This document shows positions 21,631 to 44,449 of a DNA stretch of 53,401 nt, one piece after another (the stretch's first letter is position 1; every line of letters starts with the position of its first letter). The notes beneath the pieces are model-generated. The model searched no databases and was not told the DNA's origin. It worked only from the letters and a program-made list of their open reading frames with translations. Both the position numbers and the translations under genes were made by a program. This DNA comes from Candidatus Bipolaricaulota bacterium (GTDB taxonomy: Bacteria; Bipolaricaulota; Bipolaricaulia; M55B111), in contig JAGXLB010000003.1 of NCBI GenBank assembly GCA_018334915.1, positions 1-53,401 of the forward strand, written 5' to 3'.

Positions 21631-21836
21631 GTCAATTACCCCGCACCAATGTGCGGGGCTTGGAGAAAAGCAAATTTGACTACGGATTTTGGTCTTTTAC
21701 AAAAAAAGACCCAGCACTCAAATGAGGAAAGCTGCTTGGGCTAAGAATCCGTTAATTTTACCTATTCCCCTACAGTCTTGGAACTAGCCTAGAGTACGTG
21801 AGCCAAGTTGCAGGTCTCATTTGAGTGCTGGTTTTG
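21631..21836 (+). mobile_element. Non-coding IS200/IS605-ended element with internal long stem-loop (copy 1)
   Basis: Starts GTCAATTACCCCGCACCAATGTGCGGGGCTTG...TTGAC; 16-bp stem 21711-21726/21816-21831; ends GTTTTG|GTGAA. Confidence 0.6.
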
Positions 21837-21846
21837 GTGAAACAAT

Positions 21847-21878
21847 CAAGCCCCGTCAATCTTGACGGGGCTTTTAAC
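21847..21878 (-). repeat. Inverted copy of the element-end hairpin; may act as a terminator between convergent genes
   Basis: Minus strand GTTAAAAGCCCCGTCAAGATTGACGGGGCTTG; 12-bp inverted repeat 21848-21859/21862-21873. Confidence 0.6.
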
Positions 21879-21940
21879 TTCCAATTGGAGTGACGATAAA
21901 CCCCAAAGTCCGGAGTTTACTTGAGTGATTTTGTTTTTTG

Positions 21941-23719
21941 CTAGCCTCTTATCAGTTTGAGCAGGTCTTTAGCAGCCTTTTCAGGTCCTTCTTTCTCCAT
22001 ACCTGATACGCCCAGTCTCGTTCTCAGCTGGCCTACGAATATCCCGTCACTGAAGAACTGGTCGAAAAATTCGTCTGCCAGCTGGTCGTGTGTTTCTTTA
22101 AACTGTGGTGGCCCGAAAGGGTTGGCGAAGTAAGTATGGCTTAGTCCTTTCTCAGTGGTGGTACCTTTTGACATTCGGGCTCCTTCGCTGAATATCGACA
22201 GGGCCCTTTCTGGAGTGGAAACCCTTTCTACAGTTGGATGTTCCGAATCCACTTCCTCGTAGTTATTAGCGTAAAAGAGGTAATCTATCGGTACTCCCTC
22301 CAGTACTTTCTCAATTGGTGCGACCGGCATCAAAGCGCGAGCGTTTGTCCTCTGGGGACTCATAAATATTGACCTGTCAAGCTGACTGAATGCGTACCCT
22401 TTCTGGAGATCGTCGAGTCTCACGAAAGCCCCGGTTTCCGTGCCGTAGCCCTGAATTCTCCCATCTTTGTCAATACCCAGTGATCCCATGTCATCGCAAA
22501 TTATTTCCATTTCCTGAATCGAATCTTCAGCTATTACTCGAAATGCTTCTAAAGTCTCGGATTTACCGGCACCGGAACCCCCTAGTATGGCTATTGAGAC
22601 TGGATCCATATCCTTGAAGAATATCCTAGTCATTGCCCCGTGGAGAGGTAGTCGGCCTCTTTTCATGGCAATGACGTTATGGAGCGTTAACATCATTTTC
22701 TTAACGTATCCGAAGTAGCCGAACCTGTCCTCCCTGGGTAAAGCTCCGTAGAGCAGGTCGTTTTCCTCATCCTGAAAAAATACTGTTGGAAGACCTCCGT
22801 AGTCCTTCATTTTTGAAGGATCAATTCCATAGGCGTAGATTGCGTCAGGGCTACTCTTGAGGTCTTCTCCTGTCGCCAGCTCGAACAGGTTGGCTAAAGA
22901 AGCTCCCAGATCTAGAAATTCCTGATGGAAAAATACGTCAATTCTGAGGTCGCCGACCTTTGCGGGATAGCAGAGCCAGTTATGGGGATTTATTTCTGCG
23001 TTTTTCAGGGGGTTTCTGTTGGTCTCCTGAAACCTGCCAGTTCGTTTATTCATCGGGGGATCGATTACAAATGGCGGTTCGATGGTTACCTGTTCGATAA
23101 CCGGAACCTGACCGAATTGCTTCCTCAGGTAATCCGGATATTGAAACTCTTTCTTGTCTACAGCCAGTCCGACCTCAAATCCGGCGGACACCTGGCGATA
23201 GACTATTGGGTGAGAATTGGTGATGTTTTCGGCTATGGACCGGTAAGCAGAGCGGACGAGCTCAGTTAACTCGTCGAGTTCCCGATTGAACTGGAGATAG
23301 GGTCGGGTCCCCTCTTCACTGGAGCCGTATCCCGTCCACTTCACCAAAAACCTGGTATACTCTCGCCAGTAGTCGTAGAGCTTTTCGATAAATTGATGAA
23401 ATTTCCCCCTGTGTTGTAAAATCCTTTCTCCAAGTTCGGATTTCGGACCCACCTTGGTAAGCGGGGACTCCAGAAGATCTATCAGCACAGGATGTATTCT
23501 TTCGGTTATCGTAGGAGCGGGTTGGTTGGCAAGGTCGTCCGGTAGAATTTGCAGCAACCGTGATTGGTCGTTTTTTAATTTCTCGATAAATTTCAATATT
23601 ACTTTTTGGGCAGGGTTACTCTGCAGTAGTTCTTTCTCGGTCTTGCATGGCTGTTCCCTGACCGTCAGTAAAGCCTGGTTCCGTGCCCAGGATAGTTGAT
23701 TGGTTTGCAAGGTTTTCAC
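21941..23719 (-). CDS. Divergent PEP carboxykinase-superfamily P-loop protein
   Basis: YFGYVKK, LPLHGAM, GGSGAGKSET, ICDDMG, GTETGAF and TNARALMP parallel the PEPCK motifs in order; N-terminal half unlike PckA. Confidence 0.75.
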   Translation of the reverse strand: MKTLQTNQLSWARNQALLTVREQPCKTEKELLQSNPAQKVILKFIEKLKNDQSRLLQILPDDLANQPAPTITERIHPVLIDLLESPLTKVGPKSELGERILQHRGKFHQFIEKLYDYWREYTRFLVKWTGYGSSEEGTRPYLQFNRELDELTELVRSAYRSIAENITNSHPIVYRQVSAGFEVGLAVDKKEFQYPDYLRKQFGQVPVIEQVTIEPPFVIDPPMNKRTGRFQETNRNPLKNAEINPHNWLCYPAKVGDLRIDVFFHQEFLDLGASLANLFELATGEDLKSSPDAIYAYGIDPSKMKDYGGLPTVFFQDEENDLLYGALPREDRFGYFGYVKKMMLTLHNVIAMKRGRLPLHGAMTRIFFKDMDPVSIAILGGSGAGKSETLEAFRVIAEDSIQEMEIICDDMGSLGIDKDGRIQGYGTETGAFVRLDDLQKGYAFSQLDRSIFMSPQRTNARALMPVAPIEKVLEGVPIDYLFYANNYEEVDSEHPTVERVSTPERALSIFSEGARMSKGTTTEKGLSHTYFANPFGPPQFKETHDQLADEFFDQFFSDGIFVGQLRTRLGVSGMEKEGPEKAAKDLLKLIRG

Positions 23720-24205
23720 CTCCAGAAAACTTGCCTAGGAGAGATTGGGTAGCGAAAAAACAATATTCGGTGAGAATGGGTAAATTTTAAAGGGGAATTA
23801 TATTCCCCGTATTATCGAGGTATGAGGCGAAAAACAGATAGTAAAGCCTGACCGAATTATGGTTTAAACTGTTCATGATTACCTTAAAAATCAAAACATT
23901 ATAAGCAAAGTTTGTATCTGAAGTCAAGATCGTATTTTTCTCTCGGTTGGGCTTTATCGTTCGTCCAGTCTGCCAGATTACCCCGCGAGAGTTGAAATCC
24001 TTCTAAACTCCGAAAATAAAACCAAAGCGCTTTGTGAAAGTTCGGCCCCTAGCTATTTGGCAGAACTTAACGGGCTGTTGTAATGAGTTTAAGTTTCGGT
24101 TAAATTAAGTTATATTTACTTACTTGTTAAACCTTAATAAGTGGTTAGGTTAGCATGCCGTGAGGGGTGCAGGAAAAAATGCAAGACGAGTAATTAGAAA
24201 TAAAA

Positions 24206-25429
24206 TTGATTACTCGAGGAGTGGTTAAAATTTCTAAAGCTTTTAGAGCGAGTCAGATAATTACGATGGGGGACGAAGGTGAGGTCACTGACGGGTTAAT
24301 TATTTTGAAAGATGGGGAGATAGACTACGTCGGTCCCTACGACTCAACCAAGGTTCCAGAAGATGCCGATGTGGTTGATTTCGGCGATCAAACGATTTTG
24401 CCGGGACTTATCGATGCCCATACACATGTGGGTGTCCACGAAGACGGCGAGGGTTGGGAAGGTCAGGACACAAACGAGATGACAGACCCGGTGACACCTC
24501 AGGTAAAAGCTATTGACGGGATAAATCCGGCAGGGCTTGGCCTTCAGGACGCGGTAAATGCTGGTGTTACGACCGTGAATACCGGGCCAGGGTCGGGTAA
24601 CGTAATTGGAGGTCAGTTTGCCGCGGTAAAGACTTCGGGGTCTATAGTATTGGATGAACTCTTAATTAAAGAACCGACAGCCATGAAGATGGCCACCGGC
24701 GAGAATCCAAAACGCGTTTACAAGGAAAAGGATAGTATCCCCAGCACGAGGATAGGTACGGGAGCTACATTGAGGGAAGCGTTATTCGACGCGAAGGATT
24801 ATATTGAGAGAAAAAAAGAAAACGGAGAGGATAATTCGTTTAAAAAGGATTACAAGCTGGAGGCGCTGGTGCCAGTGCTTAAAGGTGATTTAAGGGCTAA
24901 AATACACGCCCATAGAGCTGACGATATAATTACAGCTATAAGGATCGCGGAGGAGTTCGACCTGGACTATTCTATAGATCATTGCACGGAAGGTCATAAG
25001 ATAGTGGATTTCCTCGCAGAACACGAGTCCGATGCAGTAGTGGGTCCCAGCATGACTTCAAGGAGCAAAAGAGAATTGGTCGAGAGGACGTTCAAAACTC
25101 CTGGTCTACTGGCTGAGGCCGGAGTGAGGGTGGCCATAACAACCGACTCTCCCGTCATACCCATCCAGTACCTTCCCCTGCTCGCTGCATTTGCCGTGAG
25201 GGAGGGAATGGACAGAATGGAAGCCCTAAAAGCAATTACGATTAATAGTGCTCGTATAGCTCAAATAGATGACAGGGTAGGATCGCTTGAGCCAGGTAAG
25301 GACGGAGATTTTATCGTTACGGATGGCTCTATCTTCGACCTGGAAAATAACCTGGAAAGAGTCTTCGTGGAAGGTCATGAAGTAGACAGAAGCGAGCTCC
25401 CTAAGTCCGGTAAATCCAGAACTTTTTAA
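24206..25429 (+). CDS. Metal-dependent amidohydrolase
   Basis: PGLIDAHTH, KMATGENPK, HAHRADD, DHCTEG, GSLEPGKDGD; exact start uncertain. Confidence 0.88.
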   Translation: MITRGVVKISKAFRASQIITMGDEGEVTDGLIILKDGEIDYVGPYDSTKVPEDADVVDFGDQTILPGLIDAHTHVGVHEDGEGWEGQDTNEMTDPVTPQVKAIDGINPAGLGLQDAVNAGVTTVNTGPGSGNVIGGQFAAVKTSGSIVLDELLIKEPTAMKMATGENPKRVYKEKDSIPSTRIGTGATLREALFDAKDYIERKKENGEDNSFKKDYKLEALVPVLKGDLRAKIHAHRADDIITAIRIAEEFDLDYSIDHCTEGHKIVDFLAEHESDAVVGPSMTSRSKRELVERTFKTPGLLAEAGVRVAITTDSPVIPIQYLPLLAAFAVREGMDRMEALKAITINSARIAQIDDRVGSLEPGKDGDFIVTDGSIFDLENNLERVFVEGHEVDRSELPKSGKSRTF

Positions 25430-25460
25430 ATTTCTTACCGAAAGGAAAGTACAATTTAGA

Positions 25461-26714
25461 ATGAACCAATCCAGCTCGAACTTATTTGAACAGGGAGAAC
25501 CCGAGACTGACGAGATATATTCGGTCTCCCAACTAAACAGGGAAGCACGTTATCTGTTAGAGGAAAATTTTCGCTCGATCTGGGTCGAGGGAGAAGTCTC
25601 CAATCTCCATGAATCCTCTGCCGGCCACCTATATTTCACTCTGAAAGAGGAAGACTCAGAGATAGACGCCGTTATGTTTTCGGGCGATAAGAGGAAAATC
25701 GGTCTAGAACCGGAGGACGGAATAGCTCTTATCGCCCGGGGGACTTTGACCGTCTACGAGAAAAGGGGTCGGTATCAGCTGAGGGTTAGAGATCTAAAAG
25801 AAGTGGGCAAAGGGGACCTTCAAAAAAAATTTCAGCAGCTCAAAAAACGGTTGAAAGAGGAAGGTCTATTCGACGATTCGAAGAAGAAAAGTCTCCCGCG
25901 ATTTCCCGGTTCAATAGGGATTATTACTTCACCAACAGGCGCAGCCATTAGAGATATAGTTTCAACGATCGAGGAAAGACTTCCCGCCGTTACCTGTTAT
26001 GTCTTTCCCGTGAAAGTACAGGGTGAAGGAGCAGCAGGCCAGATAGCAGAGTCGATTCGCCGGGCGAACAATCTTCGGCTGAAAATGGATCTCGATCTTC
26101 TGGTTATAAGCAGGGGTGGAGGTTCTCTTGAGGACCTGTGGCCCTTTAACGAAGAGGTTGTTGCCCGGGCTATTTACGACTCGGACCTTCCTGTAGTTTC
26201 AGGCGTGGGGCACGAGGTTGATTTTACTATCTCTGATTTCGTGGCCGACGTAAGGGTTCCTACTCCAACGGCGGCGGGGAAAGAAGTTGTACCTGAGAAA
26301 AGGGATATCTTAAAAGACGTAGACGTATATAAAAATAGAATATTGAAAACGGGGGCTTCAACTGTTGAGGACAGAAAAAGGGAGCTGGATAGGTTAACAT
26401 CCAGTTTTGGGTTTAGACTACCGTTTAGAAATCTCGAAGATAAATCTCAGGAGTTCGACGAGTTAGCAGTAGAGCTTATGGAGAATGGAACAAATATTTT
26501 GTCCCTTCGCAGAGATTCTTTGATCTCCCTGGTTGACAGACTCTCGATTGCCAATCCGACCGAATTGCTCAAGAAGGGGTATTCTGTAACTTATGGGGAA
26601 AGCGGTTCGTTAGTAACCGATTATAGGGACGTAGAAGACGGGGAAAACTTGAAGACCAGGCTGTATAAGGGTATTATTCATTCTGTGGTAACGGGGGTCA
26701 ATAAGAATGAATGA
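25461..26714 (+). CDS. xseA: Exodeoxyribonuclease VII large subunit
   Basis: GEVSN, GHLYFTLK, ITSPTGAAIRD, RGGGSLEDLW, GHEVD, TPTAA. Confidence 0.96.
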   Translation: MNQSSSNLFEQGEPETDEIYSVSQLNREARYLLEENFRSIWVEGEVSNLHESSAGHLYFTLKEEDSEIDAVMFSGDKRKIGLEPEDGIALIARGTLTVYEKRGRYQLRVRDLKEVGKGDLQKKFQQLKKRLKEEGLFDDSKKKSLPRFPGSIGIITSPTGAAIRDIVSTIEERLPAVTCYVFPVKVQGEGAAGQIAESIRRANNLRLKMDLDLLVISRGGGSLEDLWPFNEEVVARAIYDSDLPVVSGVGHEVDFTISDFVADVRVPTPTAAGKEVVPEKRDILKDVDVYKNRILKTGASTVEDRKRELDRLTSSFGFRLPFRNLEDKSQEFDELAVELMENGTNILSLRRDSLISLVDRLSIANPTELLKKGYSVTYGESGSLVTDYRDVEDGENLKTRLYKGIIHSVVTGVNKNE

Positions 26715-26934
26715 AGAAGAAGTAGATATCGAAGGCAACCTTGAAAAACTGGAATCTATAGTAAGGGAACTCGAAGACGAACAGCTGGACCTGGAAAGAT
26801 CTATAGAACTGTTTGAAGAGGGAGTAAAGCTTGCCGAAGAGGTTAAGGGGGGACTGTCGGAGGCTGAACTCCGGTTGAAGAAGGTGGTTGAATCAAGCGA
26901 CCTGGACTTTGAGGCTGAGGATTTTAACCTTTAA
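26707..26934 (+). CDS. xseB: Exodeoxyribonuclease VII small subunit
   Basis: LE.IV.ELE....LE.SIELFEEG pattern; overlaps xseA. Confidence 0.93.
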   Translation: MNEEEVDIEGNLEKLESIVRELEDEQLDLERSIELFEEGVKLAEEVKGGLSEAELRLKKVVESSDLDFEAEDFNL

Positions 26935-26997
26935 AATTGAGGAGCTACCGATTCTCTCTTTTTGGGTTAATTTTATTGCTAAAACGGGGTATCAGAC

Positions 26998-28656
26998 ATG
27001 AAAGAGTACGAGAGCTTGGATTCTCTTTTTACGGACTCAACGTCAGAATTCCCGAGCAGCACGTTCAAAACTTCTGCCCCAACGGCGGATAACGGTTACG
27101 ATTACAGAAGCATGAGTTTCGAAGAGCTTGGTTCTCTTGTGGGTAGGCTTGCCCAGACGATGGTAGACAAGTACGGAATTGAGAAAGGGGACAAGGTTGC
27201 CATCATAGGTAGGCCTCATCCAAAGTGGGCCGCTACTTTCTTTGCTGCCCAGCGTGTTGGGGCAGTTGTCGTTCCGATTGCTTATAACTTTACCGCTGAA
27301 GAAATCCAACGTGTACTACACGAGTCAGAATCCAAACTGGCGATCGTTCAGAGCGATAAACACTCAGTAGTTACCAAAGAATTTGACTCGCTGTCCTATC
27401 TGGAGAATCTTGTCGTATATGGAGGAGAAGAGGAAGAAGGATTTAAGTCGTGGGATTCTTTCCTTTCCAGCGAGGAATTTACGGACTGTCCTCCGCAGGA
27501 TCCTGACGAATTAGCAGTGTTAATGTATACCTCAGGTACGACAGGGCACGGAAAAGGAGTTATGTTATCTCACGAAAACCTTCTTGTAAACGTTCACGAT
27601 ATAGCGGAAACACTGGACGTTACACCTGAAGACTGCATGGTATCCATCCTGCCCTGGGACCACATTTACGGATTGACCACTACTTTGCTTGTCCCCCTGG
27701 CGTTTGGCGCCTCGATGATCTATACAGTGGATTATCGAAACTTGCCAAGCGTGCTCCGGGGCAACGAAGGTACGATACTCCTGGGTGTGCCGAAGCTGTT
27801 AAATGCACTTTACGAGGAAACTCTGGAGAAAATAAAATCCACCTGGTGGACTAGGTGGTTGTACAAACTGGCACCGAGCCTGCTTAAATCCCAGGTGAAG
27901 TCCAAGCTAGCGGGGAAGCAATTCAGGTTTATTGCCTCTGGGGGTGCTCCTCTGAGCCCCAAAACAGCAAAAGGTTTAAGGGACCTGGGAATTGGTGTAA
28001 TGGAGGGGTATGGTTTAACTGAAACTTCCCCTGTTCTAACGTTCACTCGTGACCCCTTTACGGATAAAGAAGGTTGCGTTGGGCTTCCTCTTCCGAGCGT
28101 AGAAATTAAATTGAGAGAGACTGACGACAAGGAGATAAACGAAGTTCTGGTAAAAGGTCCTAGCATCATGAAGGGTTATTACAAGAATGAAGAGAAAACC
28201 AGGGAAGTTTTAGATGACGATGGCTGGCTTCGTACGGGGGATTCGGGTTGGATTGACGAGGATGGAGGATTGCATCTTAACGGGAGAACCAAAAACGTAA
28301 TCGTTCTCGAGTCGGGAAATAACGTCTATCCCGAAGAAGTAGAGCACGAGCTGGGCAGTATCACATTTATAGAAGAAGCTATGGTTAAAGAAGGGCGAAG
28401 GAACGGGCGAACTGTAGTTTCCGCCGTTATATACCCCGATTACGAAAAGCTGGAAGAAAAGGGGATAGTTGAAAAGGACTATATCAAGACGTTTCTCTGG
28501 GAGAAGATAAAGTCCGAGTCAAGGAGTCTTGCTCCGTATATGAGAATAAAAAGTAAAAAAGATATAGAAATCCGTGATGAGCCGTTTAAGAAGACGCCGA
28601 CTCAGAAAGTAAAACGTTACCTATATCAGGAGGAGGAAGAAGTTAGTAGCGGATAG
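26998..28656 (+). CDS. Long-chain acyl-CoA synthetase (AMP-binding)
   Basis: YTSGTTGHGKG, EGYGLTE, RTGD, GR.KNVI, NVYPEEVE. Confidence 0.9.
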   Translation: MKEYESLDSLFTDSTSEFPSSTFKTSAPTADNGYDYRSMSFEELGSLVGRLAQTMVDKYGIEKGDKVAIIGRPHPKWAATFFAAQRVGAVVVPIAYNFTAEEIQRVLHESESKLAIVQSDKHSVVTKEFDSLSYLENLVVYGGEEEEGFKSWDSFLSSEEFTDCPPQDPDELAVLMYTSGTTGHGKGVMLSHENLLVNVHDIAETLDVTPEDCMVSILPWDHIYGLTTTLLVPLAFGASMIYTVDYRNLPSVLRGNEGTILLGVPKLLNALYEETLEKIKSTWWTRWLYKLAPSLLKSQVKSKLAGKQFRFIASGGAPLSPKTAKGLRDLGIGVMEGYGLTETSPVLTFTRDPFTDKEGCVGLPLPSVEIKLRETDDKEINEVLVKGPSIMKGYYKNEEKTREVLDDDGWLRTGDSGWIDEDGGLHLNGRTKNVIVLESGNNVYPEEVEHELGSITFIEEAMVKEGRRNGRTVVSAVIYPDYEKLEEKGIVEKDYIKTFLWEKIKSESRSLAPYMRIKSKKDIEIRDEPFKKTPTQKVKRYLYQEEEEVSSG

Positions 28657-28921
28657 AAAAGTTATCAAACTCGTTTGTAGGCTCTCTTCGATCTACTTCC
28701 ACCTTATTTACATTTGCCAGCCTCGGGCCACTATTCGCCCAGGATATTAGATCTTCCAGGTCCTCCTTGTTTCCTTCCGCGAGGACTTCGACTGACCCAT
28801 CAGCCAGATTCTTTACCCAGCCAGTTAATCCGAGCTGCCTTGCTTTCCTCCTTGTACTGTTTCTGAAACCGACACCCTGAACTCTCCCTGTTATTTCCAT
28901 GTGGGCTCTTTCTTTTTCCAT
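28643..28921 (-). CDS. acyP: Acylphosphatase
   Basis: GRVQGVGFR, GWVKN..DGSVE, C-terminal FSIRY. Confidence 0.93.
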   Translation of the reverse strand: MEKERAHMEITGRVQGVGFRNSTRRKARQLGLTGWVKNLADGSVEVLAEGNKEDLEDLISWANSGPRLANVNKVEVDRREPTNEFDNFSIRY

Positions 28922-29080
28922 GTTTTGGCTAAAGTGCAACCTCCTAATTAATTTTGATTTATGATATCAAATGAAGATTTTTTTTCAATCGGTCGTATTA
29001 ATTGTGCTTTGCTTTTCGTTTACGGTAGATTAAAATTTTAGCTATGGTTAGCCCAGGAGATCTTTATAGAGGAGTTTTCT

Positions 29081-29755
29081 GTGATGGGAGTCCTGACTGA
29101 ACATTATATCGGTATCGGTCTCAGTGTTGTAGGAATTATTGTAGTGGTTTCACTGATTGTACGAAAAGCGGCTGACTCATATATCCGGCGATTTGAAAGG
29201 GTTTTCGCGAATTCGGGAATAATTGCCAGAGTATTCGTCGACAGAGTGCTGGAGTCTGAAGATATTGACATTATTCTGGAAGAGACGGAAGAAAGAAGCA
29301 AGGGAGAGTTTCTTTTTAAGGAAAGTGTAGTAAAATTGCCCGAACTGGAGGACAGTTCTCTTCTCACCCTGGGTATTTCTGCTCACGAGCTAGCCCATGC
29401 CAGTCAGGCTAACAGTCAAAAGTTTTTGGTCGCCATAACCGATATTCTCGATAAGCTGGGTGTCCTTCTTTCTTATATTTTCCCAGTCACCTTAATTATC
29501 GGATTTATTTTATTTTTTCCCTTCCTGCAGGTGGCGTTGATCCTGTATTTTTTAATTTTGTTGTTACTTTTGGCTAAGATACCTCTCGAAGTCGATGCTA
29601 GTATAAAAGCGTTAACCTACCTTGAAAGGTACGGAGAATTGACACAGGTAGAACTTTCCCGACTGAAAAAGTTACTTGTATTGGCTATACTTACCAGACT
29701 TACTGACCTTACGGCAGGTTTTCTCGTTCTTGTAGACCTGAATAAGAAGAGGTGA
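29081..29755 (+). CDS. Membrane zinc metallopeptidase (YugP-like)
   Basis: AHELAHA (HExxH) and PLEVDAS.KAL with transmembrane segments. Confidence 0.7.
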   Translation: MMGVLTEHYIGIGLSVVGIIVVVSLIVRKAADSYIRRFERVFANSGIIARVFVDRVLESEDIDIILEETEERSKGEFLFKESVVKLPELEDSSLLTLGISAHELAHASQANSQKFLVAITDILDKLGVLLSYIFPVTLIIGFILFFPFLQVALILYFLILLLLLAKIPLEVDASIKALTYLERYGELTQVELSRLKKLLVLAILTRLTDLTAGFLVLVDLNKKR

Positions 29756-29759
29756 GAGT

Positions 29760-30422: not shown

Positions 30423-30426
30423 CCCC

Positions 30427-32474: not shown

Positions 32475-32489
32475 AATCTCCTTGAACAA

Positions 32490-34374: not shown

Positions 34375-34377
34375 CCT

Positions 34378-35727: not shown

Positions 35728-36982
35728 TTTCGCTGACCCTCTCAATTGTGGCCCCGAGTGATTCAAGGTGACTCTGAAGCTCGCTGTAGCCTCTGTCGAG
35801 GTGTTTCATACCGGAGACTTCTGTTTTACCTTCCGCTGCTAAACCGGCTATTACCAGAGACGCGCCCGCCCTTATATCTGTGGCCTCGACCTCCGTTCCC
35901 CGCAGCTTGTTTTTCCCCTCTATAAATACCGTATTTGAGTTAGTAACGGATATATCTGCGCCCATCTTGCTAAGTTCCGCTACGTGACCGAATCTGCTAT
36001 CAAAGACTGTCTCCTTTACGACACTTTTACCTTTAGCCAGAGTTAATACTGAAGTGATGGGTGCCTGAAGGTCTGTGGGAAATCCCGGGAACGGGAGCGT
36101 AATTACCTCCAGGTTGTCGGGCCTTCCCTGACTTTCTATCTGGATCGAGCGTTCGTTTTCTTCAACTTTGACCCCCGCTTTCCTTAGCTTGAGACTAAGG
36201 GGCTTGATAGAAGAAGGGTCAACGGACTCAACTTTAACTTTTCCTCCCGTTGCGACGCCCGCTAACATGTACGTTCCAGCAGCTATCCTGTCGGAAAGGA
36301 CTTTGTAATTCCCTTTACCGAATTCACTGCCGCCATTTACGGTTAGGACAGACCCTTTCAGTGAAAGGTCCGCTCCCAATTCAGTCAGAAAAAGCGCCAG
36401 ATCACGGATTTCTGGCTCCTGAGCTCCGTTGTATATTGTGGTTTTGCCTTTTGCACAGACAGCGGCCATAAGGAGTTGTTCTGTTGCTCCCACGGAAGGA
36501 TAATCGAGAAAAATGTCGTTGCTTCGTAAATTATTCGCCCGAGCAATTATCCTGCCATCATCCTGATTTATCTCTACACCCAGCCTCTTCAAACCTTGAA
36601 GGTGCAGGTTTACCGGTCTAGTTCCTATATTGCATCCACCGGGTAGAGGAACTTCGGCCCGCCCGGTTTTTCCCAGGAGCGGGGCTAGGACCAGGAAGGA
36701 AGCTCGCATTTTCCTTACCAGTTCTGCTGGAGCTTGGTTGGACGAGACTGCACCAGTTATCCTGACGGTATCGGGACCGGTGGCAGTCACATCTTTACCC
36801 AGCTCCCTGACCATATTGAGCATGGTCTGAACGTCGTCCAGCCTGGGAACGTTTTCTAGATAAACTTCTTTTTCGGTAAGCAGAGTTGCCGCTATAAGGG
36901 GTAGAGCGGAGTTCTTTGCTCCTGCTATTTCAATTTTCCCTTCCAGAGTCTTTCCGCCCCGGATGGTAAGTTTTTCTGTCAT
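35720..36982 (-). CDS. murA: UDP-N-acetylglucosamine 1-carboxyvinyltransferase
   Basis: [35 protein letters not shown]. Confidence 0.97.
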
Positions 36983-38230
36983 TTAACCATTACGCATTAG
37001 TTCAAGAAACTGATCGTTGTCCTCGGTGGCTTCTATCTTCTTTTTGATAAACTCGAGCGCCTCCTGGTTCCCTTCCATTTCCCCGATCATCTTTCTCAGG
37101 ATCCTTAACTTGTTCAGTTTGGAGTCGCTAAGCAGGAGTTCTTCTTTTCTCGTGCCTGTTTGTTCCATGTCGATAGCGGGGTAAATTCTCCTGTTTGCGA
37201 GCTGTCTATCTAGAACTAGTTCCATATTACCTGTGCCCTTGAATTCCTCAAATACGACCTGATCCAGCTTACTTCCTGTTTCCACCAGGGAGGTTCCAAT
37301 TATTGTGAGGCTTCCGCCCTCTTCGATGTTTCTGGCAGCTCCGAAGAATTCTTTTGGCTTGTAAAGTGCAGCTGGGTCGATACCACCTGAGAGCAATTTA
37401 CCACTGTGATCGACAGAAAGATTGTATGCTCGAGCCAATCGAGTGATGGAGTCCATCAAAATCACTACGTCTTTCCTGGATTCCACTAGTCTCTTTGCGT
37501 TGTCGGTTACCAGTTCTGCAACTTCGGTATGGTGTTTGGGTTCCTGGTCGAACGTAGCTGCGACTACTTTGCCCATGTTTATTGATCGCCGTATATCGGT
37601 AACTTCTTCCGGACGTTCGTCTATCAATAGAACTATGAGTTCGACCTCCGGATGGTTTGCAGCCAGGCCATTTGCTATCTTTTTTATTAAAGTTGTCTTC
37701 CCTGCTTTGGGAGGGGAGACTATCAATCCTCTCTGACCTTTACCAATTGGTGCGAAGAGGTCTATAATTCTCGTGGAAATGTCGTTAGAATCATGCTCAA
37801 GCTTTAACCGTTGCTCTGGATGGAGTGGCGTAAGGTACTTAAACTCGGTTCTATCCCTTATGTCGTCCGGGGGCGAGTCGTTTATCGCAACTACCTTTAA
37901 GAGTGCCTTGTAATGTTCGTCATTCTTTGGAGGTCGTGTCTGACCTACTACCTTGTCACCGTTTTTCAATCCAAACCGTTTTATCTGGGACGGGGAAACG
38001 TAAATATCGTTTTTACCGGGAAGAAATGTCTTATCTCTCAAAAACCCGTAACCGTCGGGCAGAATACCCAGAATACCCTCAGAAAAACCCTGCCCCTGTT
38101 CCTTGGCTTCCGCCTCCAAAATCGAATAAATAAGCCCTTCTTTGTTTTGCGAGTTTAGCTTGATATCGTAATCTTCCGCTATTTCCTTTAATTCATCTAA
38201 ATTTTTTTCTCTTAGCTCTTTTAATTCCAA
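36983..38230 (-). CDS. rho: Transcription termination factor Rho
   Basis: [38 protein letters not shown]. Confidence 0.97.
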
Positions 38231-38595
38231 TTAACTCACCTCAAAAATTCGTAAAATTCCATTTCCTGTTACTGCGAGAGGCTCACAAAAAGGTTGGGGT
38301 TGATCATCCCTTTTTATCAGTTTTGGAGAGATTTACGGAATTGCCGTGTTCCGCGGGTCTAAACTAAATGAGTTCGAAATTCCTGCGGAAGAAACTTCCT
38401 TATACAAATCCTGCCACTCCAAGTAACTATAGTTAAGCCTAATATCCAATTCAATTTATTCGGACAGCTGTACTACCCGTCTACATTAACGTCACTGCGA
38501 TCAAACATAGCCAGACAATAAAATACCTTTTTAGAAAAATTCTTTATAGTATAGTGAAGGGTTTCGGGACGACGAATTGATTGTTTTACAAAAAG

Positions 38596-38624
38596 ATTAT
38601 AGATGAAGCCAAAGTGTTTGTCAA
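38596..38624 (-). promoter_or_regulatory. Consensus sigma70 promoter upstream of rho
   Basis: Minus strand TTGACA-17 nt-TATAAT, perfect consensus. Confidence 0.75.
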
Positions 38625-38696
38625 TAGAGTAACCATCTTTGGGCCCAGTTTTGCAATGGAGCCAGGGATCGTCGGTCTTGGTTTCTAACTCATTTG

Positions 38697-39353
38697 TTAG
38701 ATTAATCCGGTAGGGGTAAATGTAGTTTTAATGATGTTTTTGTACATCTTGAGCCTGGATTTTATCCCTTCGGTGAAACCACGTTTCTCTTCCTTCATTA
38801 CGTGAGTTACCCCGGTCAGTTTAACTTTTCCGGTGGATAAGTTTTCCGATAGAGAGAGTTTCGTAAGTGCCATTTCGACGCCGAACTCCTCGGCTTTCGA
38901 CTTATCCAGTTTGTTCCAGGTATCGACGGAGAGAATTCTTTGACCAGATAGATGAGGGCTTATTTTTTGCGATAAGTCCGTATTTAATCTCCCTTTGTGG
39001 AATACTCCTATAACCATGTCCAGATCTTCCTGGTGATAGGTCCGAATCATCTCGTCGACGTGGTCTGATTTGAGCCCGACAAGGTCTGCATCGAGGAACA
39101 TAAGTGTACTATCGGGAGCGGACTCCACGCCCCGAGAAAGCGCCCTGGCTTTGCCCTTGTTATGGTCGAGCTTTATCAACTCGACGTCTGCCTGACTTTC
39201 CCGAACCTTTTTAGTTGTTTGATCTGTTGAACCGTCATCCACAACTATAATATGGTTGACAAGTTCGGCATTCTCTATAGCTTCGAGGACGGATTTAATC
39301 CTTCCCGCTTCGTTATAAGCGGGTACTATTACGGAGACTTTCACGCGCTTCAC
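38697..39353 (-). CDS. Family 2 glycosyltransferase
   Basis: VPAYNE, VDDGSTD, NKGK, FLDAD, LSGQR. Confidence 0.88.
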   Translation of the reverse strand: MKRVKVSVIVPAYNEAGRIKSVLEAIENAELVNHIIVVDDGSTDQTTKKVRESQADVELIKLDHNKGKARALSRGVESAPDSTLMFLDADLVGLKSDHVDEMIRTYHQEDLDMVIGVFHKGRLNTDLSQKISPHLSGQRILSVDTWNKLDKSKAEEFGVEMALTKLSLSENLSTGKVKLTGVTHVMKEEKRGFTEGIKSRLKMYKNIIKTTFTPTGLI

Positions 39354-39447
39354 CTTTTATTTATCTGAAAAACTAACCCTTTGTGAAAATTTGAGTTTAC
39401 CATTAGATAATCTCTGGAAAGCTGTACTGGCCACTAATCATTCTATT

Positions 39448-41175
39448 TTAACCCAGAGCCGATATCCTTTCTCCCAGTTTCTCGGCAATTTGTTTAACAT
39501 CTTTGTTTTCGAGGTTTAGCTCTTCTTTATCTCCCGACCTGGACTCTACTTCCAGAACTCCACTTTCTAACCCCCTTGGTCCTATTATTATTTTAATCGG
39601 AGCACCTATAAGATCCGCATCGTTGAATTTGAAACCTGGGCTGACCTCCCTGTCGTCAACCAGAACTTCGTAGTCAAGTTCCTTCAGTTCTTTATAAAGT
39701 GCTTCGCCGAGCCGAAAGGATTCTTCGCCCTCTGAGCCCAGTACGATAAGTGCGGCGGAAAAGGGACTTACCGCGCCGGTCCAGTTTATCCCTTTACTGT
39801 CGTATTTTTGCTGTATTACCGCCGGAATTAGGCGACTTATTCCTATTCCGTAACAACCCATGATGTAGGGGTTTAAATTGCCATCCCGATCCTGATATTC
39901 TCCGTCAAGACTGTCTGAGTACTTGGTTCCCAGCTGGAATATCTGGCCTACCTCGATGCATTTGTGGAAATCTAGTTCGCTTCCACACTCAGGACAGCGA
40001 TCTCCCTCGCGGACTTTTCTCAAGTTGATAAATTTCACGTCCTCGATATCTCTGTCCCAATTTACGTTAGTGAGATGGAATCCGTTTTTGTTAGCCCCTA
40101 CGGTAAAGTTGGTAAGCGATTTAAGATCGAGATCCGCGTAGACGGGAATATCGTCTTTTAACCCAATCGGTCCGATGGACCCAAAATTTGCTCCGGTTAT
40201 CGCTTTGATATCCGCCTGGGAAGAGACCATTTCTGCCTTTTTCGTCCCCAGGTGGTTGATTAGCTTCATTTCTTCAATATCGTCATCTCCACCAACCAGG
40301 GCAGCTACCAGCCCATCGTCAGTCCTGTAAATGAACGTTTTTACTACCTTCTGGCTAGGAATACCCAGGTGGTTCGCCACTTCTTCGACTGTTTCCATCC
40401 CCGGAGTCTCTACTTCCTTTAACTCAGCCGGGCTATTTTCGCTGTATTCCGATGAAACTTCGTATCTTGCTATTTCTATATTAGATGAATAATCACAGTC
40501 ATCGCAGACGACTATTTCTTCCCCGCCTTCGTCAGCCAGGGCCATGAATTCCTGAGAATAACTACCCCCCATTAAACCCGTTGGTGCCTCCACAGCGACC
40601 CAGTCAAGTCCCAGCCGATCGAAGACCCGGGCGTAGGCGTCGTACATACGTTCGTAGGTCTTGTCGAGACTTTCCTGAGTTGAGTGAAAGCTATAGGCGT
40701 CCTTCATGAGGAACTCCCGCGATCTCATGACGCCGTGTCGGGGTCTAATTTCGTCCCGGTATTTGTCGTTTATCTGGAACAGAACAAGTGGCAGATCTTT
40801 ATAGGAGTTTAATTCGTTACGAACCAAATCAGTTATGATTTCCTCGTGGGTGGGACCCAGTGCAAATTCCCGTTCCTTCCGGTCAGCTAGCTTAAACATT
40901 TCGGGCCCGAAGTCGTCCCACCGGCCGCTCTCTTTCCAGAGCTTGGCTGGCTGAATGATAGGTAACTTTATCTCCTGCGCTCCTGCATTGTTCATCTCTT
41001 CTCTGACTACCTCTTCAATCTTTTTAAGAACCTTAAACCCCAGCGGTAAATAATCGTAAACTCCCGCGGTCACTTTTCGAATTAGTCCTGCCTTTAACAT
41101 CAGCTTGTGGCTTTCCATTTCCGCGTCCGCCGGTGTTTCTTTCAGCGTTGGTAGGAAATAATTGCTAAGTTTCAT
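39448..41175 (-). CDS. proS: Proline--tRNA ligase (with editing insertion)
   Basis: GPTHEE, RDEIRPR, REFLMKDAYSF, EVGQIFQLG, MGCYGIG. Confidence 0.97.
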   Translation of the reverse strand: MKLSNYFLPTLKETPADAEMESHKLMLKAGLIRKVTAGVYDYLPLGFKVLKKIEEVVREEMNNAGAQEIKLPIIQPAKLWKESGRWDDFGPEMFKLADRKEREFALGPTHEEIITDLVRNELNSYKDLPLVLFQINDKYRDEIRPRHGVMRSREFLMKDAYSFHSTQESLDKTYERMYDAYARVFDRLGLDWVAVEAPTGLMGGSYSQEFMALADEGGEEIVVCDDCDYSSNIEIARYEVSSEYSENSPAELKEVETPGMETVEEVANHLGIPSQKVVKTFIYRTDDGLVAALVGGDDDIEEMKLINHLGTKKAEMVSSQADIKAITGANFGSIGPIGLKDDIPVYADLDLKSLTNFTVGANKNGFHLTNVNWDRDIEDVKFINLRKVREGDRCPECGSELDFHKCIEVGQIFQLGTKYSDSLDGEYQDRDGNLNPYIMGCYGIGISRLIPAVIQQKYDSKGINWTGAVSPFSAALIVLGSEGEESFRLGEALYKELKELDYEVLVDDREVSPGFKFNDADLIGAPIKIIIGPRGLESGVLEVESRSGDKEELNLENKDVKQIAEKLGERISALG

Positions 41176-41197
41176 TGATGGTGGATCTCCTTGTTTT

Positions 41198-41632
41198 TTA
41201 CAGTAATGCACCCAGAAGGTCTATTCTCTGGACTATGCCGGTGAGCATGCCGTCTTCATTAACCACGGGTACGCGATTTAGCTCGTTCCTGATTATTAGA
41301 TCCGCTACGTGAATGTCTTCTTCGTCTTCGTTTACGGTGATAACATCTTCCACCATGTACTCTGACACCGAATCTTCCTTTATCTCTTCCAGCCTGCGGG
41401 AAAGCTGATTGATATCGGGTAGGTACGAGGCGGTTCGCAGCATCTCGAAATAGTTAGGCAGGGCTGCTTGTATGACGTCTCGTTCTGATATGAAGCCAAC
41501 TACGGTTCCTTGCTTGTCGATTACTGGGACCCCGGATAGCTCGCTTTTTTCCAGCATGAATATAAGTGCTTTTAGGGTCTGATTTTCTTTTACCGCAGTT
41601 AGATCTTTGGTCATGATATCTTTGACTCTCAT
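41198..41632 (-). CDS. CBS-domain protein
   Basis: Tandem CBS motifs VKDIMT..SGVPV..GFISE and YMV..RVPVV..GIV.R.D. Confidence 0.88.
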   Translation of the reverse strand: MRVKDIMTKDLTAVKENQTLKALIFMLEKSELSGVPVIDKQGTVVGFISERDVIQAALPNYFEMLRTASYLPDINQLSRRLEEIKEDSVSEYMVEDVITVNEDEEDIHVADLIIRNELNRVPVVNEDGMLTGIVQRIDLLGALL

Positions 41633-42591
41633 TTCAGCGAGTCACCCAGTTCGTTTAAACTAATTTGGTCAAGCTGTGCCTGGACCAGCGATGCGTCCCG
41701 ACATATCTTTTCGTAAACCTCCAGGCTGGCCATTCCTGCTGCTAGACCGAATCTAACTGCTTCCGGTACGGACTTGCCCTCTTCTATCTGATAAATTATC
41801 CCACCAATCAGGCTATCACCGGCACCGACTCGATTTCTTATGGTTAATTCTTCTCTGTTGGCCTCGAGCTCCCATATGTTGTCCTTGCTAACGAGGATAT
41901 CTCCCGTCAAGCCGTGTGAAAGAAGCACGTATTCTGTACCAAAGTCCAGCATCTTCCGTCCCGCGTCAACAATAGATTGGCTGTTAGTTAACTCTTCCCC
42001 CATTACTGCTTTTCTTTCACGAATGTCCGGTTTTATCAGAAAAGGTCCGGCTTCTGCGGCAGGCCTTACATAATCTCCTCCGGTATTTACTACCGTTCTT
42101 ATTCCCATTTCTTTAGCCCGGTCCGCCAGCTCTCGATAGTAGTTTTTCGGAACCCCCGGAGGAAGACTTCCCGACAGAACTACGAAGGACGCGCGGTGCA
42201 GCATTGTTTCATACTGGTCCATAAACTGATCCAGGACTCGCTCAGATATTTCCGGTCCGGTGCTGTTTACCTCTATAGGGTTACCCTCCTGGCCTTTTTT
42301 GAGTATCGCTACGTTGCTTCTAGTTTCCTCGGATATCCAGGTGAAGTTAGTTACGATCCCTTCTTCTCTGAGCGAACGTTTAATCGCACGACCGGTATGA
42401 CCACCAATAAGCCCCATTGCAATATTTTCCATGCCTACGCTGGCCAGATAGATTGAAACGTTAATCCCCTTACCGCCTGCGCTCGAATGCGTGCGAAAGG
42501 CCCGGGAAAGTTGAGTTTCTCCTTTTTGCTCTATTTCCTTTACCCAGTAAATAAGGTCATACGCCGGGTTTAACGTGATGGTCAGAATCAT
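41629..42591 (-). CDS. 1-phosphofructokinase-family (PfkB) sugar kinase
   Basis: TLNPAYD, GGKGINVS, LSGSLPPG, GAGDS. Confidence 0.9.
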   Translation of the reverse strand: MILTITLNPAYDLIYWVKEIEQKGETQLSRAFRTHSSAGGKGINVSIYLASVGMENIAMGLIGGHTGRAIKRSLREEGIVTNFTWISEETRSNVAILKKGQEGNPIEVNSTGPEISERVLDQFMDQYETMLHRASFVVLSGSLPPGVPKNYYRELADRAKEMGIRTVVNTGGDYVRPAAEAGPFLIKPDIRERKAVMGEELTNSQSIVDAGRKMLDFGTEYVLLSHGLTGDILVSKDNIWELEANREELTIRNRVGAGDSLIGGIIYQIEEGKSVPEAVRFGLAAGMASLEVYEKICRDASLVQAQLDQISLNELGDSLK

Positions 42592-43900
42592 TTTTTACAC
42601 TCCCTTCGTCTGGATTTAATAGGTAGCCGGTGTTTTCTGATTCAAGCCTAACTTTCCTAAATTCACCGGCCATAGATTCGGTTCCTTCGAATTCGACGGT
42701 TTTACGAAATTCGTTCTTGCCGTACATCTTATTATCCTTTCTGGCCTCCCCTTCTACCAGGACCTCCACCGTTTTACCGATAAATTGTCTATCGTATTCG
42801 CGAGAAGTTTCCTCCTGTTTTTCGAGCACCGCTTCCAGGCGTCTCTTCTTCTCCTCCTCGGGCACGTGATCGTCCATTTGTGCGCTCCTGGTTTTTGGTC
42901 GAGGAGAGAACTGAGCCACGTAGATTGAACCATATTTAACCTGGTTAATTACGTCCAGGGTTTTCCGGAAATCCTCCTCGGTTTCTCCCGGGTGTCCGAC
43001 GATAATATCAGTTGTAATATTAATTAACGGATCCGTCCGGCGAGCTTTACCTACGATCTCCAGATACTCTTCTCTCGTGTAGTTCCGGTTCATAATCTGC
43101 AAAACCCTTGTTGAACCGGATTGAAGCGGGAGATGGATATGTCGAACTAAGTTTGGGTTATCGTTCATTACGACCAAAGTCTCTGCGTCCAGGTCGGCAG
43201 GATGAGGGGTTGTGAAGCTTATTCGGGGGATTCCAGTAGCTGCCACCCGTTCCAGCAACCAGGCAAAGTCTACATCTCCTTTTTCGATGTCCTTACCGAA
43301 GGCATTGACGTTTTGCCCGAGTAACTGGACTTCCCTGTAGCCATTTTCCGCGAGTTGTTCAACCTCTCGTATAATTTTGTCCGGGCCCCTGCTTCGGAGT
43401 GGGCCCCGAACCTGAGGAACTATGCAGTAAGAGCAGGCGTTAGAACAACCTTCTGCAATTGTTACCCAGGCAAAGTAATCTGACTGTCGTAACACGGGTA
43501 AATTCTCGAACCCGCTTGGTTTTGGTATAGATGCTACCGGTTCACCCTGTCTCGCTCGATTTGCCAGATCCGGAATTTCGCCAAGGTTTGACGTACCAAA
43601 TACGAAGTCAACGCCGCCCGATTGGGAAAAGAGATCTACCCCAAAATGCTGGGCCATACAACCGCCTACACCCAGTATGCTATCTTCCTTTCGTTGGTTT
43701 TTTACCTGACCGATCCTTCCGCGGACTTTTTCCTCGGATTTCCCCCTAACCGCACAGGTATTAAAAATTATCAGATCAGCTTCGGTTATTTTCTCAACGG
43801 GTTTATAGCCGTAGTTGCTGAGATGGCCTGTTATTTTTTCAGACCTGTGGTAATTGAGCTGACAGCCCCAGGTTTCGACATACAGGTTTTTCTCGTCCAT
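42557..43900 (-). CDS. miaB: tRNA methylthiotransferase MiaB
   Basis: TWGCQLN, NTCAVR, GCMAQ, CSNACSYC radical SAM motif, C-terminal TRAM-like region. Confidence 0.93.
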   Translation of the reverse strand: MDEKNLYVETWGCQLNYHRSEKITGHLSNYGYKPVEKITEADLIIFNTCAVRGKSEEKVRGRIGQVKNQRKEDSILGVGGCMAQHFGVDLFSQSGGVDFVFGTSNLGEIPDLANRARQGEPVASIPKPSGFENLPVLRQSDYFAWVTIAEGCSNACSYCIVPQVRGPLRSRGPDKIIREVEQLAENGYREVQLLGQNVNAFGKDIEKGDVDFAWLLERVAATGIPRISFTTPHPADLDAETLVVMNDNPNLVRHIHLPLQSGSTRVLQIMNRNYTREEYLEIVGKARRTDPLINITTDIIVGHPGETEEDFRKTLDVINQVKYGSIYVAQFSPRPKTRSAQMDDHVPEEEKKRRLEAVLEKQEETSREYDRQFIGKTVEVLVEGEARKDNKMYGKNEFRKTVEFEGTESMAGEFRKVRLESENTGYLLNPDEGSVKNDSDHHVKPGV

Positions 43901-44190
43901 ATCACTCGCCCCTAGAAAATTATAATGGGAATGCTGAAGACTGGCTGGCAATAAAGTTATAAGCAACATTATTTTAAATGATGGAGTTTAGTAAATCCAG
44001 TCATTAAAAGGGCGTCAGTATTAAGAGTGCTGGTCTTTTTGTGTATTTATTGACTTAAAACTGCTAATTTTTTCTGTAGGGACGGGGACGATCTAACCAT
44101 TCGTATTTCAGGTTAACCGGTTGGGAAGGTTGGTCCGAGCTTGGTCTTTGGCCATAATATCTTATCTCGGCTTAAAGAGTTTAATCCGGA

Positions 44191-44449
44191 GTCAAGAAAC
44201 CTACACCGAAGGACGGGGCTTGAAAAAACATATGAACAACAGTATTTTAAGGTTAACAATCGGGAATTGACCCAGCGCCCAATTGAGGAGACTAACTTGG
44301 CCAAATTAAACCAAAACCTTCTCATTGGCTTTGCCTAATAGGTTACGCGTACGATAACTTCACCAGGCTCCATATCTCAACTGGGTGCTGGAGGTAAACC
44401 AGCCGATTCCTCCCTGCAGCGAGCTGCAGGGCTTCCTCGGCAAGTTTTG
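44191..44449 (+). mobile_element. Non-coding IS200/IS605-ended element with internal long stem-loop (copy 2)
   Basis: Starts GTCAAGAAACCTACACCGAAGGACGGGGCTTG; stem 44272-44287/44376-44391; terminal hairpin GCCGATTCCTCCCTGCAGCGAGCTGCAGGGCTTCCTCGGC; ends GTTTTG|GTGAA. Confidence 0.7.

Follow-up and report, generated by a model that had tools for sequence, protein, structure and literature searches.

Protein-less, PATE-like derivatives of IscB-type IS200/IS605 transposons, with a probable nested hairpin element, in a Bipolaricaulota genome

A stretch of 53,401 nucleotides from a Candidatus Bipolaricaulota bacterium (GenBank assembly GCA_018334915.1, contig JAGXLB010000003.1; hereafter the window) holds two cassettes without proteins, copy 1 at 21631-21836 and copy 2 at 44191-44449, in which a GTCAA end resembling the 5' part of the HEARO RNA (omegaRNA) of IscB transposons is followed by a 16-bp stem around an interior that differs between the copies. 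A first-pass annotation suggested that such a cassette might be a mobile, stand-alone guide-like RNA with a variable interior, and the question raised by this locus is whether the cassettes are RNA genes or mobile DNA. To judge from their sequences, they are non-autonomous IS200/IS605 elements resembling the palindrome-associated transposable elements (PATEs) and are not omegaRNA genes, and they are best filed under known kinds, namely a PATE with a small hairpin repeat nested in it. The explanation that we favor, and hold to be probable, is that of a PATE-like relic of an IscB-type IS200/IS605 transposon carrying a separate nested hairpin element.

The window is contig C163 of a metagenome-assembled genome (MAG) of 2.9 Mb in 316 contigs, 84% complete and labeled G000 (labels in G, C and L denote genomes, contigs and loci, respectively). 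Together with 18 relatives it makes up the 19 family genomes compared here, which are MAGs of 70-90% completeness that break at repeats. End and hairpin patterns were sought in a phylum sample of 184 genomes, 165 of them outside the window's family-level clade, and an end-pattern scan across one genome per species returned at least 93 stretches. Metagenome contigs were taken from three DNA runs (X1, X2, and X3) of one salt-lake study.

The layout that the first-pass annotation gave for the two cassettes is correct to the base. Each begins with GTCAA, a hairpin and GGGGCTTG, proceeds to a later TTGAC and closes with GTTTTG/GTGAA, the slash here and below marking the element boundary or insertion point, and in each a 16-bp arm pair encloses an interior, of 89 nt in copy 1 and 88 nt in copy 2. 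The arms of copy 1 (CCAGCACTCAAATGAG and CTCATTTGAGTGCTGG, 21711-21726 with 21816-21831, then TTTTG/GTGAA) form a perfect stem; those of copy 2 (CCAGCGCCCAATTGAG and CTCAACTGGGTGCTGG) contain one G-T pair at position 6 and one A-C mismatch at position 11, and differ from the arms of copy 1 by compensatory changes at positions 8 and 12, just as had been described. Copy 2 has, in addition, a different linker and an extra 58-nt module ahead of GTTTTG/GTGAA.

Empty sites show that these ends are the true boundaries of the elements. At the position orthologous to copy 2, none of the four same-genus loci has a counterpart of the element: empty sites read, for example, GGA/GTGAAAAA or CCTGGA/GTGAAAAACGTG, and the window has CCGGA, the element (GTCAA...GTTTTG) and then GTGAAAAATTTG, a junction without duplication. 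Because all four orthologous loci are without the element and there is no target duplication, copy 2 is, as judged from these alignments, a real insertion. The metagenome contigs contained no clean joint empty of the whole element, only a joint that lacked the hairpin and, in one relative, a rearrangement of 948 nt. The boundary of copy 1 is given by the palindromic repeat that flanks it, which reads GGGGATG/GTGAA, uninserted, in 11 paralogous copies. Between the stem and GTTTTG, copy 2 and most of the family carry a near-terminal palindrome module of 58 nt; copy 1 is without it, and we regard copy 1 as an internal deletion because its junction is unique among the BLAST matches in the genome.

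Both copies belong to a large family. BLAST of the two copies against this genome yielded dozens of matches, many at contig ends, and allowing up to two mismatches the genome contains 78 GTCAA-hairpin ends and 40 GTTTTG-side ends; a separate IUPAC end pattern has 31 exact matches. Contig ends lie within 300 nt of 22 of the 78 GTCAA ends and 13 of the 40 GTTTTG-side ends, and the cassette repeats probably rank among the main reasons why this MAG is fragmented. Of the 184 phylum genomes, 17 contain the end pattern, all in the window's family-level clade (this MAG and 16 of the 18 relatives), and in none of the 165 others. Among the matches listed from the one-genome-per-species scan, there are only MAGs titled Candidatus Bipolaricaulota, Acetothermia or "uncultured Thermotogae". 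Summed metagenome contig depth over 44212-44514 reaches 1,900-5,800 in the three runs, with flanks at ~20 (X1), 3-12 (X2), and 0-2 (X3). A literature search listed no account of repeats in Bipolaricaulota, as judged by titles and the beginnings of abstracts.

Alignment of 18 complete copies from this genome and 39 distinct copies from loci resolves the cassette into four modules: (a) A/GTCAA, a CCCC...GGGG hairpin and CTTG; (b) either of two unrelated linkers, type A and type B; (c) a CCAGCA...TGCTGG hairpin with interiors of ~38, 74 or 88-91 nt; and (d) GCCGA, a CCCC-hairpin-GGGG, CTTCC, TCGGC and AAGTTTTG. Complete family copies in this genome and in the relatives' loci measure 124-340 nt and none has an open reading frame (ORF). 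Neither copy 1 nor copy 2 has an ORF of at least 80 aa within it, and no ORF-bearing full-length element stood among the matches listed from the end-pattern scan (loci up to L105). Two long end-to-end distances were rejected as artefacts of the search pattern. The family also includes mini forms of 50 nt, with a single hairpin between GTCAA and GTTTTG, and solo module (d) ends.

The likeness of the ends to those of IS200/IS605 elements, noted at the outset, extends to the insertion site. In a set of 181 distinct flanks the element is followed by a conserved GGTRA and then by random sequence, and the base ahead of GTCAA is A in 66 of 78 flanks. The target is not duplicated, and on the bottom strand insertion falls 3' of TTCAC, a hallmark of IS200/IS605; the ends GTCAA... 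and ...GTTTTG are not inverted repeats of each other. Read on the bottom strand, the convention for TnpA ends given in Meers et al. (10.1101/2023.03.14.532601) makes GTCAA the right end and GTTTTG, with the left-end hairpin, the left end.

The resemblance to HEARO (RF02033) is likewise real and confined to the GTCAA end. In cmscan, copy 1 reaches 29.1 bits, where the gathering score is 83; the alignment is good over model positions 1-52 (GUCAA, the CCCC...GGGG hairpin, GCUUG...CAAG, and UUGAC) and then skips 115 model positions. Copy 2 has no HEARO match in permissive Rfam searches run to E = 10, and the whole window has no Rfam match at gathering thresholds. The HEARO core, positions 53-211, which the first-pass annotation did not recognize here, is indeed unmatched in the cassettes; the loci L107 and L108 align over the full model. 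Weak HEARO matches number 20 in this genome, scoring about 15-32 bits, and the cut-off is reached in 2 of 151 phylum-sample genomes. L107, in a same-genus genome (G026:C51:62-1634), scores 92.5 bits and is followed by a 438-aa ORF with the Pfam domains RRXRR and HNH, that is, an IscB; the 5' end of this element differs from the cassette end. In a genome of the same family (G071), a 55-bit HEARO precedes an IscB-like start cut by the contig end, and the first 50 nt of this HEARO are very like the GTCAA end of the cassettes.

The first-pass annotation had proposed a search for tnpA, iscB, isrB, or tnpB elements with the same ends, and this succeeded in part, with the HEARO/IscB end of G071 and with a tnpA copy in this genome, at C241:920-1285 (L001), but with no iscB or TnpB in this genome. 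The tnpA copy is the sole strong Y1_Tnp match here (138.8 bits); it is of IS200 type, has an in-frame TAG, and its flanks resemble both cassette ends. Y1_Tnp matches occur in 4 of the 19 family genomes and are strong only in this one. Neither the TnpB zinc-ribbon, nor the genus IscB used as a query, nor RRXRR, a profile equally without a match in any reference genome, had a match in this genome; IscB is present in 1 of the 19 family genomes, and no iscB or isrB ORF adjoins copy 1 or copy 2. The negatives for IscB, TnpB, and TnpA mean not found in incomplete MAGs, from which genomic absence does not follow. Our view that the cassettes are not omegaRNA genes follows from the match of the GTCAA end to HEARO positions 1-52 only and from the failure to find iscB here.

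The pattern of conservation in the cassette ends can be compared with the needs of a transposase and of an omegaRNA. In 32 sequences of the module (d) hairpin, 97.8% of cells are paired, with four compensatory pairs (35 cells), a level reached by none of 500 shuffles, and the GTCAA-end hairpin shows three compensatory pairs in 27 type-A sequences. Copy 2 and 32 relatives have both near-terminal hairpins, with compensatory changes. In the P1 helix of the omegaRNA, the central C-G is intact in 7 of 25 distinct type-A sequences and broken in the other 18. Since the two terminal hairpins covary and P1 is mostly broken, it is the needs of a transposase, not those of an omegaRNA, that have been conserved.

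The inner stem has a distribution of its own. A CCAGCA-seeded search for hairpins, with up to three mismatches between arms, found 73 in this genome, compared with 6, 4, and 14 in controls with reversed, complemented, and direct arms, respectively, which is more than chance would give. Many of the 73 sit in cassettes, and at least four further repeated contexts of the genome also contain such hairpins. The 121 distinct modules from this genome and the relatives' loci have 16-bp arms and fall into sizes of 70, 105-108, and 119-123 nt, and their interiors form discrete, oriented, internally homologous subfamilies, none of them self-complementary. Orientation relative to the cassette (same/inverted) varies by subfamily, being 16/1 in subfamily 0, 5/7 in subfamily 2, 3/7 in subfamily 4, and 6/1 in subfamily 6. 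The interior of copy 1 is the reverse complement of that in C209:7633-7753, and the copy 1 hairpin stands opposite to this one and to those of L044, L053, L085, and L093.

Forms without the hairpin exist alongside those that are filled. Two cassettes lack it (C257:6099, 124 nt, and L076, 138 nt), and in two of the three metagenome runs hairpin-less contigs skip 44270-44397. Another family, a ~340-nt repeat with complementary ends ACCTAAGT.../...ATTTGGGT and about 25 copies (C19:6078-6420, C81, C103, C311, and others), has the CCAGCA hairpin at its center, and copies of this repeat without it measure 214-223 nt (C105:6064, C134:5106, and C105:13533 on the minus strand). Within cassettes there is a second site, inside the near-terminal palindrome (L059, L063, and L031), and hairpins are nested within hairpins in L037, L060, L086, and L094. 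Three further hairpin-bearing contexts were noted, at C231:7255/C258:1619/C140:5/C187:16, at C140:35356/C89:3477, and at C110:3622/C69:26733/C263:7755; an example of such flanks is ...CTCGGCTCGCTCT, hairpin, AACCGTGCCCGCTCGCCTCCGATAG. Two CCAGCA hairpins also lie at C1:63687-63808 and C24:22181-22302 of G052, a genome of another family-level clade in which the cassette end pattern was not found, so that the hairpin may have a wider distribution than the cassette. The first-pass annotation had allowed that the stem might be the inverted repeat of an unrelated, known miniature inverted-repeat transposable element (MITE) nested in both cassettes. A separate nested element is what these observations point to, but not a catalogued MITE.

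The structural constraint on the stem, which two copies had suggested, is evident in the larger set. Arm positions 1-6 (CCAGCA) are nearly invariant and positions 7-16 covary. Among 37 hairpins of the 119-123-nt class, 97.1% of outer-helix cells are paired, with four compensatory pairs, a percentage inflated by the choice of the set for arm complementarity; in the inner 5-bp CUUGG/CCAAG helix 89.7% are paired and a single pair is compensatory. Taken together, the two helices have 62 cells changed on both sides, which none of 500 shuffles attains, although many compensatory cells in the arms were inherited within subfamilies and are not independent events. Interior conservation is confined to the 5-bp inner stem. 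G-T and A-C are equally frequent on the cassette sense strand (12 versus 12 of 960 cells), a test weakened by the flipping of the module relative to the cassette.

Table 1. Coordinates in the window of the two complete cassettes, their parts and targets, and a truncated third copy
Feature	Position	Strand	Description
Copy 1	21631..21836	+	206-nt protein-less IS200/IS605-type (PATE-like) element, read as internally deleted, without near-terminal palindrome at the GTTTTG end
Copy 1 GTCAA end	21631..21680	+	GTCAA, hairpin CCCCGCAC with GTGCGGGG (21639-21658), GGGGCTTG, TTGAC (21676-21680); homologous to HEARO positions 1-52
Copy 1 linker hairpin	21691..21710	+	GGTCTTTT...AAAAGACC, type-A linker
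Copy 1 hairpin module, subfamily 2	21711..21831	.	Perfect 16-bp arms, 89-nt interior
GTGAA target motif (copy 1)	21837..21841	+	Already in empty sites; bottom strand TTCAC, like a transposon-adjacent motif (TAM)
Copy 2	44191..44449	+	Complete 259-nt element; lineage-specific insertion, no target duplication
Copy 2 GTCAA end	44191..44271	+	Degenerate hairpin, GGGGCTTG (to 44222), type-B linker, TTGAC (44267-44271) pairing with GTCAA
Copy 2 hairpin module, subfamily 0	44272..44391	.	16-bp arms with one G-T and one A-C; 88-nt interior
Copy 2 near-terminal palindrome	44402..44441	+	GCCGA...CCCTGCAGC GA GCTGCAGGG...TCGGC
GTGAA target motif (copy 2)	44450..44454	+	In empty orthologous sites L133 and L134; L132 has GTAAC, L135 GGAAT
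Third copy, cut by contig start	1..27	+	...GGGGCTTCCTCGGCAAGTTTTG, then GTGAA at 28-32

Several features border the two copies. Immediately upstream of copy 1 is a long palindromic repeat (~190 nt, 21440-21629; also at 6857-6966) with dozens of matches in the genome; its end, GGGGATGGTGAA, supplies the GTGAA target used by copy 1. Matches to microRNA models at 21491-21621, from the permissive Rfam search, were disregarded as driven by the palindrome of this neighboring repeat. Just past copy 1, at the end of the convergent gene, is a terminator-like hairpin on the minus strand (AAGCCCCGTCAA..TTGACGGGGCTT, 21848-21873); its GTCAA and GGGGCTT strings are like those of the cassette end, and it may be what is left of another copy. 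At the other locus, the downstream ORF, listed from 44447, begins at the end of copy 2 (44440-44470). In relatives, GGAG stands directly before GTGAAAAA at this site, and the insertion of copy 2 therefore parts the downstream gene from its former upstream region.

The cassette hairpins have themselves received insertions. At C274 (~676-2270; L117) an element of the IS110 family, with a 402-aa protein matching DEDD_Tnp_IS110 and Transposase_20, interrupts a cassette hairpin exactly within its 3' arm, with CTCAAGTGA on one side and GTGCTGG on the other. The ~290-nt 3' noncoding part of the element holds CGCAAGTGAGAGCTGG, a near copy of the target, which we take to be what is expected of the target loop of a bridge or seek RNA. 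A different IS110-family element, with a transposase 28% identical, sits in the near-terminal palindrome of the cassette at L121 (G026:C80, reverse strand, ~1360-1800), after CCCCACAGCGAGCT. IS110 homologues are present in 6 of the 19 family genomes, and there are four in this genome.

We propose that the outer element would be an IscB-type IS200/IS605 derivative that has kept both ends and lost iscB and the omegaRNA core, retaining GTCAA with its subterminal hairpin and, in complete copies, a second subterminal palindrome ending in GTTTTG. By analogy with IS608 and ISGst, a Y1 HUH transposase (TnpA) acting in trans would bind the subterminal hairpins on single-stranded DNA, excise the element, and re-insert it 3' of TTCAC, that is, 5' of GTGAA on the plus strand of the window, without target duplication. 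The inner element would be a palindromic repeat in its own right, ~70-123 bp long and bounded by inverted ends of 16 bp, with CCAGCA near-invariant and positions 7-16 covarying, that could be gained or lost as a unit, could be flipped, and would also be embedded in other repeat families of the same genomes. Its arm covariation would then reflect selection for, or homogenization of, a DNA hairpin or inverted repeat serving the propagation of the module itself, not an RNA guide scaffold.

A more specific idea, which we offer tentatively and think rather less likely to be right than wrong, is that the CCAGCA hairpin represents an uncharacterized class of mobile hairpins, a bacterial counterpart of haloarchaeal SMR-A that preferentially parasitizes IS200/IS605 relics. 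If true, the hairpin would move as a unit and in either orientation, without a transposase gene of its own or an ordinary target duplication; the mover might be, for example, a Y1 transposase acting on the single-strand hairpin near CCAGC-like sites, or an IS110-type recombinase, and strict arm covariation would be the signature of a required DNA hairpin.

A number of observations weigh against the nested-relic explanation. No intact TnpA able to move the outer element was found in the 19 family genomes, and copy 1 is probably immobile now, having lost one subterminal palindrome. A scan of arms 200-6,000 bp apart found no autonomous element with the arms of the hairpin, only C274 and one poor pair. 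The choice of hairpins for complementarity and the inheritance of compensatory cells, given above with the numbers that they affect, detract from the covariation. Hairpins with single-copy flanks on both sides are few, 6 of 73, two of them probably due to chance. In cassettes the hairpin nearly always lies just after GAC, and hairpin-less forms keep CCAGC after GAC, like cAGcc after P1 in HEARO. Finally, 5-nt direct repeats, CCAGC and GGGCT, flank the module at two cassette sites and make the insertion boundaries ambiguous; between target duplication, microhomology-mediated deletion, and target mimicry as their source we could not decide. No target duplication around hairpins was seen in reading the listed flanks, for which no systematic scan was made, and no target consensus for the hairpin was derivable from the flanks.

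The last of these points are shared with the strongest alternative, which we nevertheless consider unlikely, that the hairpin is no separate element but belonged to the cassette from the start, as a remnant of or replacement for the long-range stem that follows P1 in HEARO. Recombination would then account both for the inverted forms, by exchange between the 16-bp arms, and for the copies in other repeats, and forms without the hairpin would be due to deletion stimulated by it. The position after GAC is constant in nearly all cassettes of diverged genomes, hairpin-less forms read TTGAC-CCAGCC as HEARO reads UUGACcAGcc, solo hairpins with unique flanks are scarce, and a CCAGC direct repeat beside the module fits deletion by slippage, all as this alternative would have it. 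What speaks against it is that the same hairpin, with homologous interiors, is central to the unrelated ~340-nt repeat, which has hairpin-less forms of its own, that it recurs in at least three further repeat contexts, inside the near-terminal palindrome, and inside other hairpins, and that it is present in a genome of another family-level clade in which the cassette end was not found.

The original suggestion, that the cassettes are stand-alone, omegaRNA-derived RNA genes in which a GTCAA adaptor and covarying scaffold present the interior or the upstream flank as a guide, has become very improbable. It would account for the HEARO-like first 52 nt, for predicted folds more stable than those of shuffled sequences (z = -4.31 for copy 1 and -2.64 for copy 2), and for the GUCAA/UUGAC pairing kept in seven of seven type-B copies, and IscB is present in the genus. 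Against this stand the HEARO score of copy 1 (29 versus 83 bits), the lack of any match for copy 2 or for core positions 53-211, and the broken central P1 pair in 18 of 25 type-A sequences. There is no RRXRR/IscB or TnpB match in this genome, and IscB is found in 1 of 19 family genomes versus 17 of 19 for the cassette end. The interior, moreover, occurs in either orientation and in discrete subfamilies, not with the diversity of spacers, and G-U shows no excess over A-C. Promoter and terminator scans gave nothing convincing inside either element, and the guide-like matches to be expected were found neither in phages (copies 1 and 2) nor in plasmid records (copy 2).

Just as improbable is the view of the hairpin as an ordinary MITE, derived from a DDE transposon, or as a REPIN that depends on a RAYT transposase, with its autonomous partner missing from the fragmented MAGs, for although the 16-bp terminal inverted repeats, uniform size, and many copies, the 5-nt direct repeats at two sites, and genomes of 70-90% completeness with breaks at repeats (22 of 78 GTCAA ends within 300 nt of a contig end) would suit it, no matching arm pair encloses a transposase (the C274 pair is a hairpin split by an IS110-family element), no direct repeat was seen in the flanks read (a systematic duplication scan was not made), no complete hairpin lies near any of the three weak Y1_Tnp loci in relatives (L115 has one lone GTGCTGG), no RAYT-like or other candidate gene was found between closely spaced hairpins, and the arms covary instead of keeping one transposase-binding sequence.

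REP and REPIN elements are moved by RAYT transposases, and REP sequences are targets of IS110-family insertion sequences. The CCAGCA hairpin resembles them in being short, abundant, and palindromic, in the length of the hairpin that it forms, in its compensatory arm changes, and in the IS110-family insertions at C274 and L121. It differs in that no RAYT-like gene was found with the hairpins, which are mostly nested in repeats and are not free intergenic units. The cassettes, for their part, share with the HEARO/omegaRNA of IscB elements the GTCAA end (positions 1-52), located at the transposon end, but score far below the gathering threshold, lack the core, have no adjacent iscB, and often have a broken P1.

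The nested-relic explanation is best served by a comparison with PATEs. These are protein-less IS200/IS605 derivatives described in the archaeon Haloquadratum walsbyi, including terminal-only forms of 52 bp (Dyall-Smith et al. 2011, PMC3119063), and in Geobacillus stearothermophilus, where they are related to IscB/TnpB elements (10.1101/2023.03.14.532601). Compared with PATEs as described in these two accounts, the cassettes are similarly without coding capacity and without terminal inverted repeats, have near-terminal palindromes, insert beside a short specific motif without target duplication, and share their ends with tnpA/iscB elements. They also have terminal-only mini forms, of ~50 nt as against 52 bp in Haloquadratum, and copies that far outnumber transposase genes. 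They are distinguished by their Bipolaricaulota host and by an IscB-type rather than TnpB-type parent, the end keeping the first 52 nt of the HEARO/omegaRNA scaffold.

The inner hairpin has its parallel in the same archaeon. SMR-A (HqIRS42, 43, and 55) of H. walsbyi are repeats measuring ~110 bp and numbering up to 54, with prominent inverted termini and without target duplication, which insert preferentially in PATEs or IS605-type elements, often in the near-terminal palindromes, and whose mobilization is called enigmatic (Dyall-Smith et al. 2011, PMC3119063). The CCAGCA hairpin is likened to SMR-A by description, not by sequence: it too is a module of ~110 bp with inverted ends and tens of copies, lying mainly inside PATE-like elements and sometimes in their palindromes. 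Its main site is, however, internal (after GAC) and not the palindrome, and in other repeat families too it occupies a fixed position. It is further set apart by the arm covariation, the orientation flips, and the forms without a hairpin described above. Two-level nesting of this kind is known, on the evidence of the same source, from Haloquadratum archaea and is here seen in a salt-lake bacterium.

The tempting reading of these cassettes as a new stand-alone guide RNA is thereby replaced by a documented one. In their decay, IscB-type IS200/IS605 transposons leave behind abundant relics without proteins, which keep only the parts needed by the transposase, and the relics retain the first part of the omegaRNA scaffold because the start of the scaffold overlaps the transposon end. 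Weak partial HEARO matches in genome scans should accordingly be read as possible relics. Small hairpin repeats inside PATEs occur in a bacterial phylum from the same type of habitat as Haloquadratum, and the filled and hairpin-less forms in two host families, the flips, the covariation, and the landings of IS110-family elements provide material on how hairpin repeats move.

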